Shown: positions 27,538-32,645 of the stretch, piece by piece
Numbering within the stretch: position 1 is the stretch's first letter
Layout of the letters: every line of letters starts with the position of its first letter
Source of the DNA: Acidiferrobacterales bacterium
GTDB lineage: Bacteria; Pseudomonadota; Gammaproteobacteria; Enterobacterales; Alteromonadaceae
Direction: 5' to 3'
Assembly: GCA_964195425.1 (NCBI GenBank)
Contig: CAXMOM010000013.1
Location: 70,069 to 134,068 of the forward strand
DNA: 64,000 bases
Notes under the pieces: generated by a model
The model's database searches: none
What the model was told of the DNA's origin: nothing
What the model saw: the letters and a program-made list of their open reading frames with translations, nothing else
Translations under genes and position numbers: made by a program

Positions 27538-29766
27538 CTATACCTTGGCGAGTAAGCGGTTAAGCGTTGCACTTGGGCGCATTGCGTCAGCAGCTAGCTT
27601 ATCATCGGCAAAGTAATAGCCATTAATGTCTATAGCAGGCCCTTGAGCGCTATTTAATTCAGCTACTATTGTGGCTTCACTTTCAGCCATAGCGCTTGCA
27701 ACAGGCGTAAACTGGGCGTGTAATTCAGCATCGCCGGTTTGTGATGCAAGTGCTTGTGCCCAATATAAGCCTAAGTAAAAATGAGAGCCTCGGTTATCCA
27801 GCTCATTTACACGACGAGATGGCGACTTATTTTCTTGCAAAAATTTAGCGGTTGCTTGGTCTAGGGTATCGGCTAGTACTTTTGCTTTTGCGTTAGCTGT
27901 TGTTACACTCAAATGCTCCAAAGATGCAGCAAGGGCTAAAAACTCACCCAATGAATCCCACCGTAAGTGGTTTTCTTTTTCAAATTGCTGAACATGCTTA
28001 GGCGCTGAACCACCAGCGCCTGTTTCAAACAATCCACCGCCGTTCATGAGTGGCACTATTGACAGCATTTTCGCACTAGTACCTAACTCTAAAATAGGGA
28101 ATAAGTCAGTGAGGTAGTCACGTAATACGTTACCGGTAACTGAAATTGTATCTTCACCTTTTATGCAACGAGCAAGGGTAAACTCGGTGGCTTTAACTGG
28201 CGCCATTATTTGAATGTCTAAATCAGCAGTATTGTGGTCTTGCAAATAGGTGTTAACCTTTTTAATCATTTGTGCATCGTGAGCACGGTTTTTGTCAAGC
28301 CAGAATATAGCAGGCGTATTTGAGGCACGTGCACGTGTTACCGCTAATTTAACCCAGTCTTGAATAGGCGCATCTTTAGCTTGACACATTCTCCAAATAT
28401 CGCTGTTTTCAACGCTATGTTGCAATAAGACTTCACCTGCGCCATTCACTACGCGCACTGTGCCTTTTGCTGACAATATAAAGGTTTTGTCATGCGAACC
28501 ATATTCTTCTGCTTTTTGCGCCATTAGACCAACGTTAGGCACTGTGCCCATTGTGGTTGGGTCAAAAGCACCGTTTTGCTTACAAAATTCAATGACCGTA
28601 GCAAATACGCCGGCATAGTTACGATCGGGGATCATAAACTTAGTATCTTTTTGACGGCCATCAGGGCCCCACATTTGACCAGAAGCTCTAATAGCAGCTG
28701 GCATAGAAGCGTCAATAATAACATCGCTGGGTACGTGCAAGTTGGTAATGCCGCGATCAGAGTCGACCATTGCCATGTCGGGACGATTTGCATAAACCGC
28801 TTGGATATCTGCTTCAATCTGCGCTTTTTTGTCTGCTGGAAGCTTGGCTATTTTGGCATATACATCGCCTAATCCGTTTCTGACATCAACGCCAATTTCT
28901 GCAAAAGTGTCAGCATGTTTAGCAAATACTTCTTTGTAGAAGACTTCTACGGCCTGACCAAATATAACTGGGTCAGAGACCTTCATCATGGTGGCTTTCA
29001 TGTGAAGCGATAACAAAACGTCTTGTTCTTTGGCTAAGTTAATTTCTTTTTCGAAAAAGCTTTTAAGTGCGGAGCTACTCATTAATGAGGCGTCAATTAT
29101 TTCTTGGTCAATTAAGGATACTTTTTCTTTTAGAACCGACACTGCGCCGTTCACATCAACAAATTCAATATGCACATCTTGAGCGCCATTTATGGTTGTG
29201 GATAATTCACTACCATAAAAGTCTCCGCTGTCCATATGCGATACATGTGATTTTGACTGTGCAGACCAAGCACCCATTGAATGAGGGTTAGTGCGTGCAT
29301 ATTGCTTAACCGAACTTGGTGCACGGCGATCAGAATTACCTTCACGCAAAACGGGATTAACCGCTGAGCCTAAAATTTTAGCGTAAGTTGCTTGTATGTT
29401 TTTTTCTTCATCAGTGTTGGCTTTTTCTGGGTAATCTGGCAATGCATACCCTTTGGCTTGAAGCTCTATAATAGCGGCTTGAAGCTGGGGAACAGATGCA
29501 CTGATATTGGGTAATTTAATAATGTTCGCTTCAGGTGTCTTTGCAAGATCACCAAGCTCGGCAAGGTCATCGCCTATGCGCTGCTGCGCAGTCAAATAAC
29601 TAGGAAAATTTGCAATAATACGACCCGCTAATGAAATGTCGCGTGTCTCAATATCAATATCCGAAGAAGCGGTAAAAGCTTTGATTATTGGCAACAATGA
29701 TTGAGTTGCTAAAGCTGGTGCTTCGTCGGTAATGGTATATATTATCTTAGATGGTTCAGTAGACAT
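27538..29766 (-). CDS. icd: Monomeric NADP-dependent isocitrate dehydrogenase, copy A (Azotobacter / Colwellia IDH-II-like)
   Basis: [59 protein letters not shown]. Start set to ATG 29766 after an AGGA SD. Confidence 0.96.
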
Positions 29767-30410
29767 TAAAAATCCTATAGTAAATTGAAAAGTAGCTGTC
29801 ATTTTTGCTAGTCGCTACTGCCAGCAACTAGGCTTCTTGATTAGGTTATTGCTTCCGTTTTGGATTATATACCGCAAGAATATTAACAGCTCATATTAGG
29901 CGGTAATTTTATATGAAAACCGAACATTTTTACAGCCCGTAATCCCAATAGAAAATACTTTTTGGAGAAAAAGGGAGTATTTTGCTGCTTATATTATCTG
30001 TTTTAGCCTTTAATCGTTCAATGAACACTAGCGCGGATGTTTTGAGTTGTTTAAGCGCTTATCAAAATACCTTTACTCACTCAAAAATATGAACAAAAAA
30101 TCTACTTATCAAAATTTATTCTATTTCACTACAAAGCATTTGAGTTCTCAAATGTTTCGCCACAAGATGTGAATTTTGATTAAGTAGCTACTTAAGCCTT
30201 ATATTCATTGCTATTGTTTGTTTGTGTCATGTTTGCTATGTTTTACATGACTGTAATGATATAGATTTGATGTCAGGTTTCGCCAATTTTGTCTAATATG
30301 CACTGCTCTAATATGTGCGTATAAGCGCTATCGCCAGCTGGATTAGTGTCGATTCTTAGTTCAGTCTCAGCCTTTATTCAGACATTTACTCAAGCAAGGA
30401 ATTAATTCAG

Positions 30411-32645
30411 ATGTCAGATAACAAACAAAAGATTATTTACACTTACACCGACGAAGCGCCATTGTTAGCCACAGCTTCGCTACTACCGATTATCCGAAGA
30501 TTTACTGCAGCGGCCGACATAGAAATAGAATTGAGCGATATTTCGGTCGCTGCACGTGTATTAGCCGAATTCCCTGAGTATTTAAGTGAAGAACAGCGAG
30601 TTCCTGACAACTTAGCCGAGCTTGGTCTACTTACACAAGAGCCGAATACCAATATAATCAAGTTGCCGAATATCAGTGCTTCTGTACAACAGCTTAAAGG
30701 CTGTATCAAAGAACTACAGGGCAAAGGTTATGCCATTCCTAATTTTCCTGATGATCCCAAAAGTGATGAAGAAAAAGACCTCAGGCAACGCTACGGTAAG
30801 AGCCTAGGAAGTTCTGTTAATCCCGTTTTGCGTGAAGGCAACTCTGATCGCCGTGCACCAAAAGCGGTTAAAAACTTTGCACGTAAGCATCCGCACTCTA
30901 TGAGTGAGTGGAAACAATGGTCACGTACGCATGTTTCGCATATGCACAAAGGTGACTTCTACGATGGTGAGCAATCTATTACGCTTGACCAAGCACGCAA
31001 CGTTCGTATGGAGCTATTGGCAGACGATGGCAGCATTACGGTGCTAAAAGCTGAGCTTTCCCTTCAGGATAGCGAAGTTATTGACTTAATGTTTATGAGC
31101 AAAAAGGCACTCTGTGATTTTTATGAGCGAGAAATGGAAGACTGTCGTGAGTCAGGTATTTTGTTCTCTTTGCACGTAAAAGCCACCATGATGAAAGTTT
31201 CTCACCCTATCGTGTTTGGTCACGCGGTTAAAATTTATTACAAAGAAGCGTTTGAAAAACACGGTGCTTATTTTGATGAATTAGGGATTAACGTAAATAA
31301 CGGCATGGCAAGTTTGTATGAAAAGATAGCTGAACTGCCTGCCAGTAAACGTGAAGAAATTGAGCGCGACTTGCATGCTTGTCAGGTTCATCGTCCGCGC
31401 CTTGCAATGGTCGACTCTTCAAAAGGCATTACTAACTTCCACTCACCAAGTGATGTGATTGTTGATGCGTCTATGCCGGCAATGATCCGTTCAGGAGGTA
31501 AAATGTGGGGCGCTGATGGCAAAAATTATGACTGTAAAGCCGTAATGCCTGAGTCTACATTTGCTCGCATATACCAAGAAATGATTAACTTCTGTAAATG
31601 GCATGGTAATTTTGACCCAACCACCATGGGAACAGTGCCCAACGTAGGCTTAATGGCACAAAAAGCAGAAGAGTATGGCTCTCATGACAAAACCTTTGAA
31701 TCTGCTGATGCAGGTATCGCGCGTATTGTTGATGTCGACAGTGGTGAAGTGCTGCTAGAACAACGAGTGGAAAAAGGTGATATTTGGCGTATGTGTCAAA
31801 CCAAAGACTTGCCTATTCAAGATTGGGTTAAACTTGCTGTGCGCCGCGCACGTGATTCAGATACGCCAGTCGTATTTTGGTTAGACCCATACAGACCACA
31901 TGAGAATGAGCTAATTAAAAAGGTCAGAACGTATCTGAAAGATCATGATACCCATGGTCTTGATATTCAAATTATGTCGCAGGTACGTGCAATGCGATAC
32001 ACACTAGAGCGTGTGGCACGAGGCCTTGACACTATTTCTGCAACCGGCAACATTCTAAGAGACTACTTAACCGATTTGTTTCCGATTTTGGAATTAGGTA
32101 CTAGCGCGAAAATGTTGTCTGTAGTGCCGCTTATGAAGGGTGGTGGCTTGTTTGAAACGGGCGCCGGTGGCTCTGCACCTAAGCATGTTCAGCAGTTGCT
32201 TGAAGAAAACCATTTACGTTGGGATTCGCTGGGTGAATTTTTGGCCTTAGCCGTTTCTATCGATGAATTGGGTCAGAAACATAAAAACAAAAAAGCTAAA
32301 ATTTTAGCCGATACACTTGATGTTGCCACTGGACGCTTACTTGAAAACGACAAATCACCGTCGCGTAAGGTAGGAGAAATAGACAACCGAGGTAGTCATT
32401 TTTATCTAAGTTTATATTGGGCTGATGAGTTAGCTAAGCAAAAAGATGATGCTGAGTTGTCATCGCAGTTCACACTTTTGTTTACGCAATTGAGCGAAAA
32501 TGAACAGGCTATTATAAAAGAGTTGAATGAAGTGCAGGGCAAAGCCGTTGATATTGGAGGTTACTTTTTAGTAGACCCTCAAAGATGTGCCAAAATAATG
32601 CGACCTAGCGATACATTCAACAACATACTGGACGCAGCAAAGTAA
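30411..32645 (+). CDS. icd: Monomeric NADP-dependent isocitrate dehydrogenase, copy B (mycobacterial Icd2-like subtype)
   Basis: [65 protein letters not shown]; AAGGA SD. Confidence 0.96.

Follow-up and report, generated by a model that had tools for sequence, protein, structure and literature searches.

In the 64,000-nucleotide stretch of contig CAXMOM010000013.1 analysed here (positions 70,069 to 134,068; 'the window'), two genes for NADP-dependent isocitrate dehydrogenase (NADP-IDH), IDH-A and IDH-B, stand head to head. The explanation that we favour, with a probability of about 70%, is that IDH-A encodes a native monomer and that IDH-B belongs to an acquired, self-contained cassette for an enzyme of the dimer type, each gene having its own promoter. 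The two genes are as follows.

27538..29766, minus strand: IDH-A, 742 aa, assigned to the type III monomeric NADP-IDHs, in the clade of Azotobacter vinelandii IDH (AvIDH) and Colwellia IDH-II, by profiles, tree, residues and the ratio of nonsynonymous to synonymous substitution rates (dN/dS)
30411..32645, plus strand: IDH-B, 744 aa, assigned to the type III NADP-IDHs, in the 'dimeric' subclade resembling Acinetobacter baumannii IDH2 (AbIDH2), by profiles, tree and nine of nine interface residues

Two intact type III genes in a core chromosomal locus

The open reading frame (ORF) of IDH-A spans 27538..29802 on the minus strand from its first ATG (754 aa), with a homology-supported start at 29766 that yields a protein of 742 aa beginning MSTEPSK; that of IDH-B occupies 30411..32645 on the plus strand (744 aa). 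They are transcribed divergently from either side of a 644-nt AT-rich spacer (29767-30410). Each protein matches PF03971 end to end (1301 bits for A and 1259 for B, with a cutoff of 25) and the TIGR00178 equivalog model (1352 and 1304 bits, cutoff 950), and both are full-length members of the type III (monomeric-type, ~740-aa) NADP-IDH family. The original prediction of two intact, divergent genes of ~743 aa, made from the sequence before any comparison, was exact in its coordinates: neither copy contains an internal stop or a frameshift, and all of the peptide strings that it quoted were found in A and B, with APKH, HLRWD and DNRGSH present in both.

The same arrangement was found on 21 contigs of other samples, and contigs of three independent metagenomes (one from sediment and two from sea ice) show no difference between the start of A and the start of B, so the junction is not an assembly artefact. 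Core chromosomal genes flank the pair, with hemA-prfA-prmC-sirB-kdsA on one side and cyclase-purB-hflD-mnmA-rluE-cspD-clpS-clpA on the other. The nearest named relatives of A come from Brumicola/Glaciecola (82-85% identity) and Alteromonas (84%), then from relatives of Thalassotalea and Colwellia (79-80%), and the metagenomes that hold the locus derive from marine sediment and sea ice. On the basis of these relatives, the core flanks and the source metagenomes, the host is an uncultured cold-marine, Glaciecola-like member of the Alteromonadaceae.

Two subclades of one enzyme family

The two proteins share 60% identity over 740 aa in a pairwise alignment with one gap. We placed them in a bootstrapped neighbour-joining tree comprising five PDB sequences rebuilt from alignments, named relatives, translations of fetched loci (numbered with the prefix L below) and four outgroups; in a search of representative sequences nearly the whole family fell into one 50% cluster, from which search only the outgroups were drawn. 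A and B occupy separate clades, each with 100% bootstrap support, and are not sisters within one clade, which bears out the earlier view that the pair represents two subtypes and not a recent duplication.

Among solved structures, A best matches the Azotobacter vinelandii enzyme 1ITW (1141 bits, 70% identity); it is 79% identical to the Colwellia-group enzyme, and its 100%-bootstrap clade unites it with AvIDH and Alteromonadales enzymes. Only two of the nine AbIDH2 dimer-interface residues discussed below are present in A. These comparisons identify A as the vertically inherited, native Alteromonadaceae enzyme of the classical monomeric kind, the Azotobacter/Colwellia IDH-II type that had been recognised from the sequence.

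The beginning of A required a decision between two in-frame ATG codons separated by a short conserved segment.

29767..29802, minus strand: conserved 36-nt leader of A in the alignment of relatives, with a Shine-Dalgarno sequence TAGGA and an in-frame upstream ATG

The ATG at 29766 coincides in the alignment with the N-terminus of every homologue and follows the conserved TAGGA, and the 36 nt between the ATGs at 29766 and 29802 are conserved as DNA and not as protein. Gene callers use the leader ATG to stretch A to 754 aa (811 aa in L092). We rejected the 754-aa start because the extension is not conserved as protein, the upstream ATG is replaced by ATT in L088 and the segment is absent from genomes that carry A only. 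By this alignment A almost certainly starts at 29766, and 29767-29802 is probably an untranslated 5' region.

B gives a different picture. Its best match among solved structures is 5Z16, or AbIDH2 (1330 bits, 77% identity), followed by Mycobacterium tuberculosis (Mtb) ICD2, 5KVU (1229 bits, 72%), and 4ZDA, with 1ITW at 1036 bits; identity is 70-72% to the mycobacterial ICD2s as a group (5KVU and 4ZDA) and 82-85% to the Psychrobacter and Granulosicoccus enzymes. In the tree B lies inside a 100%-bootstrap clade with AbIDH2, Moraxella, Psychrobacter, Granulosicoccus, Betaproteobacteria, an actinobacterium and the mycobacterial ICD2s. Its nearest neighbours there are Granulosicoccus and Psychrobacter (98%), and the Pseudomonas aeruginosa IDH (PaIDH) is sister to the clade that contains B.

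AbIDH2 was described by Wang et al. as a homodimer (5Z16; PMC5979607), with interface residues K168, Q169, W170, H177, E247, D390, N393, W397 and R529. Mutation of seven interface residues gave a thermolabile monomer, the dimer being more thermostable than this monomerised mutant; the Km for NADP+ of the dimer is 94 µM, as against about 2-6 µM in classical monomeric IDHs, and the enzyme shows no activity with NAD+ (PMC5979607). B is identical to AbIDH2 at all nine positions (K168, Q169, W170, H177, E247, E390, N393, W397 and R529), in a numbering that coincides with that of native AbIDH2. At position 390 the published text (PMC5979607) has Asp, and the 5Z16 chain has Glu once it is aligned in the register in which the remaining eight residues agree.

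The KQW triplet and W397 are common to the enzymes of Acinetobacter, Moraxella, Psychrobacter, Granulosicoccus and several Betaproteobacteria and to the Glaciecola B copies, and are absent from the mycobacterial enzymes and PaIDH. Because B carries them and the mycobacterial enzymes do not, B is better called AbIDH2-like than Mtb Icd2-like. The earlier comparison with Mtb Icd2 was therefore right as to the larger clade (100% bootstrap, 72% identity) and missed the closer relative, AbIDH2, with its higher identity and full interface signature. Placement and interface residues together assign B to the 'dimeric NADP-IDH' (AbIDH2-like) subgroup of type III, and by analogy B is predicted to form a homodimer. 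An A/B heterodimer was considered and judged unlikely, since seven of the nine interface residues are missing in A.

Both copies are predicted to be active and selected

Catalytic and cofactor-binding residues are the same in the two copies. The isocitrate/Mn2+ ligands, which we take from Yasutake et al. to be S132, N135, R139, R145, K255, D350, Y420, R547, D548 and D552 (AvIDH numbering), do not vary among A, B and the five PDB enzymes. The NADP 2'-phosphate ligands K588, H589, R600 and R649 are likewise identical in A and B; the four outgroup sequences differ at cofactor positions, including 589, 600 and 649, so the alignment is able to discriminate. A and B are thus both predicted to be NADP+-specific, and the residues of NADP specificity noted at the outset do persist in both. 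A divergence of B towards another reaction or cofactor, as an NAD+-linked enzyme, a reductive carboxylase or an enzyme of some other 2-hydroxyacid substrate, is very improbable: NAD-specific type III IDHs exist (cited in PMC5979607) and reductive carboxylation had been raised in the original prediction, but the isocitrate/Mn2+ and 2'-phosphate ligands are all kept where the outgroups differ, and the enzyme to which B is 77% identical does not use NAD+.

In comparisons with three relatives in which the pair is present, A has a dN/dS of 0.036-0.068 and B one of 0.040-0.044, values which indicate that both genes are functional and under strong purifying selection. The synonymous divergence (dS) of A and B from the same relative is similar, 0.53 and 0.56 for L083 and 1.3 and 1.8 for L092, and the pair has therefore been kept together since before these genomes split. 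GC content is 43% in both copies, and GC at third codon positions (GC3) is 35% in A and 38% in B; given this likeness, B is not a recent, unameliorated arrival.

These results also bear on whether B is an acquired spare copy, a backup or a source of extra NADPH/2-oxoglutarate capacity with no role of its own. Such redundancy would agree with the identity of catalytic and cofactor residues in A and B, and with the many close relatives that have A alone or B elsewhere. We nevertheless regard it as quite unlikely: purifying selection on B has been as strong as on A (dN/dS 0.04) over dS > 1, the two proteins differ systematically at a surface on which, according to experiment, the oligomerisation and thermostability of AbIDH2 depend, and 40% sequence divergence makes identical properties unlikely.

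B recurs as a portable unit

We were interested in how often an IDH of the B type stands beside a second one. Only one of the 80 surveyed B-type genome loci has another type III IDH nearby, in tandem, in a Psychrobacter metagenome-assembled genome. In that genome (L012; genes at 6001-8208 and 8501-10729) the partner branches deeply among type III IDHs, with about 62% identity to A and to B alike.

For B proteins that share 88-95% identity with the window's own, the divergent A/B pair at kdsA-purB was found in the window, L083-L085 and L092. L088 also has the pair, with a 557-aa Exo_endo_phos-like gene lying between A and B (L088:5889-7562, minus strand) and co-oriented with B; a remnant of this gene was looked for in the window spacer, and none was found. 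B occurs alone in five other unrelated contexts: in Glaciecola sp. SC05, in sp. XM2, with sbtA/P-II, with aldehyde dehydrogenase and PEPCK genes, and with pta-ackA. Together with about 225 nt of upstream DNA, it is present in at least six unrelated contexts within the same 88-95% range (the window, L081, L082, L089, L090/L091 and L093/L094).

Direct alignment shows homology from a CTACyTAAG motif to the ATG of B in both A+B and B-only contexts, and none 5' of CTACyTAAG or 3' of the stop codon in the aligned B contexts. The B unit so delimited measures ~2.46 kb (window ~30186-32648) and consists of the upstream DNA of about 225 nt and the gene. Beside B in the relocated contexts we saw neither a transposase or integrase nor a tRNA or flanking repeat. 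An exact copy of CTACTTAAG just 3' of B in L089 was treated as coincidence, as it includes that gene's own stop codon.

The distribution of the two genes differs. Matches to B of at least 81% identity come from a few Glaciecola, then from Granulosicoccus and Psychrobacter, and the named genomes that bear A (Brumicola spp., G. petra, Glaciecola MH2013 and others) are not among them. The G. petra order (L096) is kdsA (forward), then a hydrolase (abh), A, the cyclase gene and purB, all reversed; essentially all that sets the window apart from this is the added B, which lies upstream of A and is oppositely oriented. A at kdsA-purB is inverted in Brumicola nitratireducens and Glaciecola MH2013 (L086 and L087) relative to G. 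petra and the lineage of the window. Around A, L086, L087, L096 and the window also differ through gain or loss of small genes (ychJ, roxA, hydrolases).

The spacer joins two independent upstream regions

The spacer has 33.5% GC and is 74% identical to that of relatives with a 95%-identical protein. Its parts are unevenly conserved.

29906..29957, minus strand: promoter-like block of A, reading on the A strand ...TGTAAAAATGTTCGGTTTTCATATAAAAT; conserved, with a putative -10 element TAAAAT at 29906-29911
29958..30185, no strand: AT-rich, poorly conserved middle, with many indels relative to L083 and largely unalignable with L092
30188..30216, plus strand: 5' edge of the portable B unit, CTACTTAAGCCTTATATTCATTGCTATTG, with the CTACyTAAG motif at about -215 to -224 from the ATG of B
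30214..30242, plus strand: putative B promoter, TTGTTT-17 nt-TATGTT, its spacing and sequence kept in L083, L089 and L090 and approximately in L092
30385..30406, plus strand: leader and Shine-Dalgarno sequence of B, TTTACTCAAGCAAGGAATTAAT, conserved upstream of B in nearly all contexts

On the side of A, the block at 29906-29957 is conserved in all six genomes examined, three of which have A only (G. petra, Brumicola and MH2013), and the A-proximal ~190 nt of the spacer are present in A-only genomes too. We infer from this conservation that the block holds A's promoter. On the side of B, we ran a one-occurrence-per-sequence expectation-maximization (OOPS-EM) motif search on the regions upstream of B in all contexts. 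The leader and Shine-Dalgarno sequence T.TACTCAA.CAAGGAA emerged first (log-likelihood 69.6, versus 57.4 +/- 3.3 in shuffles) and, after the leader had been masked, CTACyTAAG, which occurs in B-only contexts as well (42.3 versus 34.4 +/- 2.1). Across contexts the candidate promoter of B reads TTGTkT-17-TATGTT, a weak match to consensus that is backed only by its conservation.

The central ~230 nt are the least conserved part of the spacer, and an 11-nt palindrome at 30134-30157 falls within them. An Rfam scan matched only tRNAs, with no match in the spacer, and an inverted repeat (I1) assigned to the spacer was rejected as an element, since it consists of the mutually homologous 5' ends of the A and B coding sequences. 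No common regulatory element was found that is present wherever the A/B pair occurs; the conserved blocks are specific to A or to B and occur without the partner. Because each half is conserved in the absence of the other gene and the middle is not conserved, we interpret the spacer as the upstream regions of A and B, each inherited on its own and now adjoining the other.

A plus-strand promoter-like site, TTTACA-16-GAAAAT at 29929-29956, overlaps the conserved block of A. Its sequence would allow it to be either a promoter back to back with that of A or simply A's -35 region read on the other strand.

These observations do not favour the shared isozyme switch with which the original prediction had explained the pair, in which one spacer-bound regulator would reciprocally control both promoters in response to cold and warmth or to acetate and sugar. 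The idea has some attractions: the divergent arrangement is kept in the window, L083-L085 and L092; the spacer is long and AT-rich, with conserved blocks and a palindrome; the plus-strand site overlaps the block of A; the host belongs to sea ice and cold sediment; and in work of the Takada laboratory the isozyme genes of Colwellia maris are reportedly induced differentially by cold and by acetate. It must be set against an upstream block of A that predates B, being found in A-only genomes, 225 nt upstream of B that are conserved where A is absent, a spacer least conserved at its centre, a 557-aa gene that separates A from B in L088, and the 79 of 80 other genomes whose B-type gene has no second IDH nearby. 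We therefore consider a coordinated switch unlikely.

A proposed origin: native gene and acquired cassette

The reading that we prefer, a native A joined by an acquired, self-contained B, would account for these findings as follows. The pair would comprise two NADP-IDH isozymes of the same ~740-aa type III fold from two old subclades. B would have entered a Glaciecola-like lineage by horizontal transfer as the ~2.46-kb unit, complete with promoter, leader and gene, and would have come to lie immediately upstream of A, on the other strand. The 644-nt spacer would then be the juxtaposition of two independent upstream regions, not a control region built for both, and transcription of each gene would most likely start at its own putative promoter.

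Any functional differentiation would most likely reside in the proteins. By analogy with characterised relatives, A may be a high-efficiency, heat-labile monomer and B a more stable homodimer with lower affinity for NADP+, possibly under allosteric control by glyoxylate, pyruvate or oxaloacetate at the branch point of the tricarboxylic acid (TCA) and glyoxylate cycles. A bacterium of sea ice might plausibly have specialised the two enzymes by temperature or carbon source. The sequences themselves show that the genes are intact, to which subclades they belong, which interface and active-site residues they have, that both are under purifying selection and that the spacer is modular; we infer the quaternary structure, the kinetics and thermal behaviour, the promoters and the physiological role.

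Several points weigh against this account. The tree is a neighbour-joining tree only, and it gives weak support (28-62%) to the branching order among Glaciecola B copies. For B, oligomerisation and kinetics are extrapolated from an enzyme of 77% identity. A search of RNA runs turned up none that contains the locus. Matches to the consensus promoter numbered 12, versus 12.9 expected in shuffles, and the terminator scan was likewise unenriched; with the consensus scans at chance level, the promoter proposals rest on conservation. Back-to-back promoters may share a regulator or show some cross-talk, given that the site at 29929-29956 overlaps the block of A. The divergent arrangement has been kept in four related genomes over dS > 1, a retention that could reflect selection for adjacency. 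Finally, the amino-acid composition carries no clear signal of cold adaptation for A or B, the indices mostly tracking clade and not habitat.

Other features of the window

Downstream of A lies a further element of the locus.

27463..27500, no strand: strong hairpin terminator with a 17-bp stem, bordered left and right by T/A runs, that separates the convergent genes kdsA and IDH-A

From its structure and position this hairpin is likely to be a bidirectional terminator. Directly downstream of B is a gene for a membrane-anchored class III adenylate/guanylate cyclase (PF00211; 32759-34054, minus strand), which is kept at the locus in most relatives and missing in L092 and Glaciecola MH2013. Elsewhere, a minus-strand tRNA cluster at 15542-16046 contains three tandem tRNA-Gln(ttg), tRNA-Leu(tag) and tRNA-Met(cat), and a fourth tRNA-Gln (20733-20807, minus strand) lies 4.7 kb from it. 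Genes of central carbon metabolism occupy 50693-63887, comprising pyruvate kinase (50693-52129), zwf (53427-54971), edd (55682-57523) and MalQ (61656-63887). The last of these, an ORF of 743 aa, was considered as a third IDH and rejected, being alike in length and otherwise unrelated. No PF00180 (type I icd) gene was found among the checked large ORFs of the window; in a protein search with the Colwellia-group type I ICD, the best 120 matches were saturated by Colwellia-like sequences of at least 88% identity.

Implications

The pair offers a natural comparison between NADP-IDHs of the same fold, a predicted monomer and a predicted dimer, that co-evolve in one psychrophile. It would be a clean system in which to ask what dimerisation of a monomeric-IDH-like subunit buys, be it stability, allostery or lower affinity for NADP, and it raises the question of how isocitrate flux is partitioned where no type I ICD/AceK system has been shown. 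The spacer is also a caution: divergent orientation alone is no evidence of a shared switch, since here the intervening DNA appears to consist of juxtaposed, independent upstream regions. The most intriguing by-product is the repeated relocation of the B unit, which hints at an unrecognised route for moving single genes of core metabolism. Only tentatively do we advance the joint claim that in this Glaciecola-like lineage of sea ice and sediment an AbIDH2-type homodimer fills the role of 'stable, regulatable dimer' held by the type I ICD in the isozyme pairs of Colwellia and Pseudomonas, that the pair was assembled convergently from one fold, and that the B unit is an unusually portable cassette among cold-marine Gammaproteobacteria with no recognisable mobility genes.

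Comparison with known systems

AbIDH2 is the closest characterised counterpart of B, sharing its bootstrap-supported clade and the same nine interface, catalytic and NADP residues. The systems differ in host, Moraxellaceae for AbIDH2 and a cold-marine member of the Alteromonadaceae for B, and in that B is a dimer by prediction only. They differ also in the partner enzyme, which for AbIDH2 is the type I dimeric IDH1 (PMC10574006) and for B the type III monomer-type A. The mycobacterial ICD2s, of Mtb (5KVU) and M. smegmatis (4ZDA), stand within the same larger 100% clade as B at 70-72% identity and lack the K168, Q169, W170 and W397 of the AbIDH2 interface, all of which B has. Mtb ICD2 has nonetheless been reported as a dimer (PMC5979607), and M. 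smegmatis ICD2 is allosterically activated by glyoxylate (10.1101/318345).

A has its counterparts in AvIDH (1ITW, 70%) and Colwellia IDH-II (79%), members of its own 100% clade that are likewise without the AbIDH2 interface signature. By analogy with the latter, we assume A to be cold-adapted. In a Colwellia relative, a type I icd (PF00180) and the A-type gene form a tandem flanked by rluE and cspD, a layout which we take to match the published Colwellia arrangement; in the window, by contrast, A is found in the kdsA-purB interval, with a type III gene as its partner.

Adjacent NADP-IDHs of different quaternary type are familiar from the icd/idh pair of P. aeruginosa and icd-I/icd-II of Colwellia maris, which share with the present locus the neighbourhood purB-mnmA-rluE ... 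cspD-clpS-clpA. The P. aeruginosa pair is also divergent in orientation, and the Colwellia isozymes differ in thermal properties and induction. Both of those pairs consist of a type I dimer of ~416 aa and a type III monomer, whereas both members of the window pair are type III (PF03971). In P. aeruginosa the two enzymes are regulated differently, by AceK phosphorylation and by allostery respectively, PaIDH being activated by pyruvate, oxaloacetate and glyoxylate (10.1101/318345).

For two type III genes of ~740 aa in one psychrophilic Alteromonadales genome, as in the window, there is a precedent in Colwellia psychrerythraea 34H, with IDH-IIa and IDH-IIb (Suzuki & Takada 2016, cited in PMC8287583). 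No Colwellia sequence occurs among the B-type matches of at least 73% identity, so the 34H pair is probably not one of monomer type plus AbIDH2 type. Both of its IDH-II enzymes are reportedly monomers adapted to cold, and the strain is said to have a third enzyme, a type I dimer. Of IDH combinations, PMC10574006 gives only types I + III and types II + III, and we found no description of a pair made up of a type III monomer and an AbIDH2-type gene. A and B are each ordinary members of described subgroups, and the novelty, a modest one, lies in the pairing of a type III monomer-type gene with one of the AbIDH2 type.

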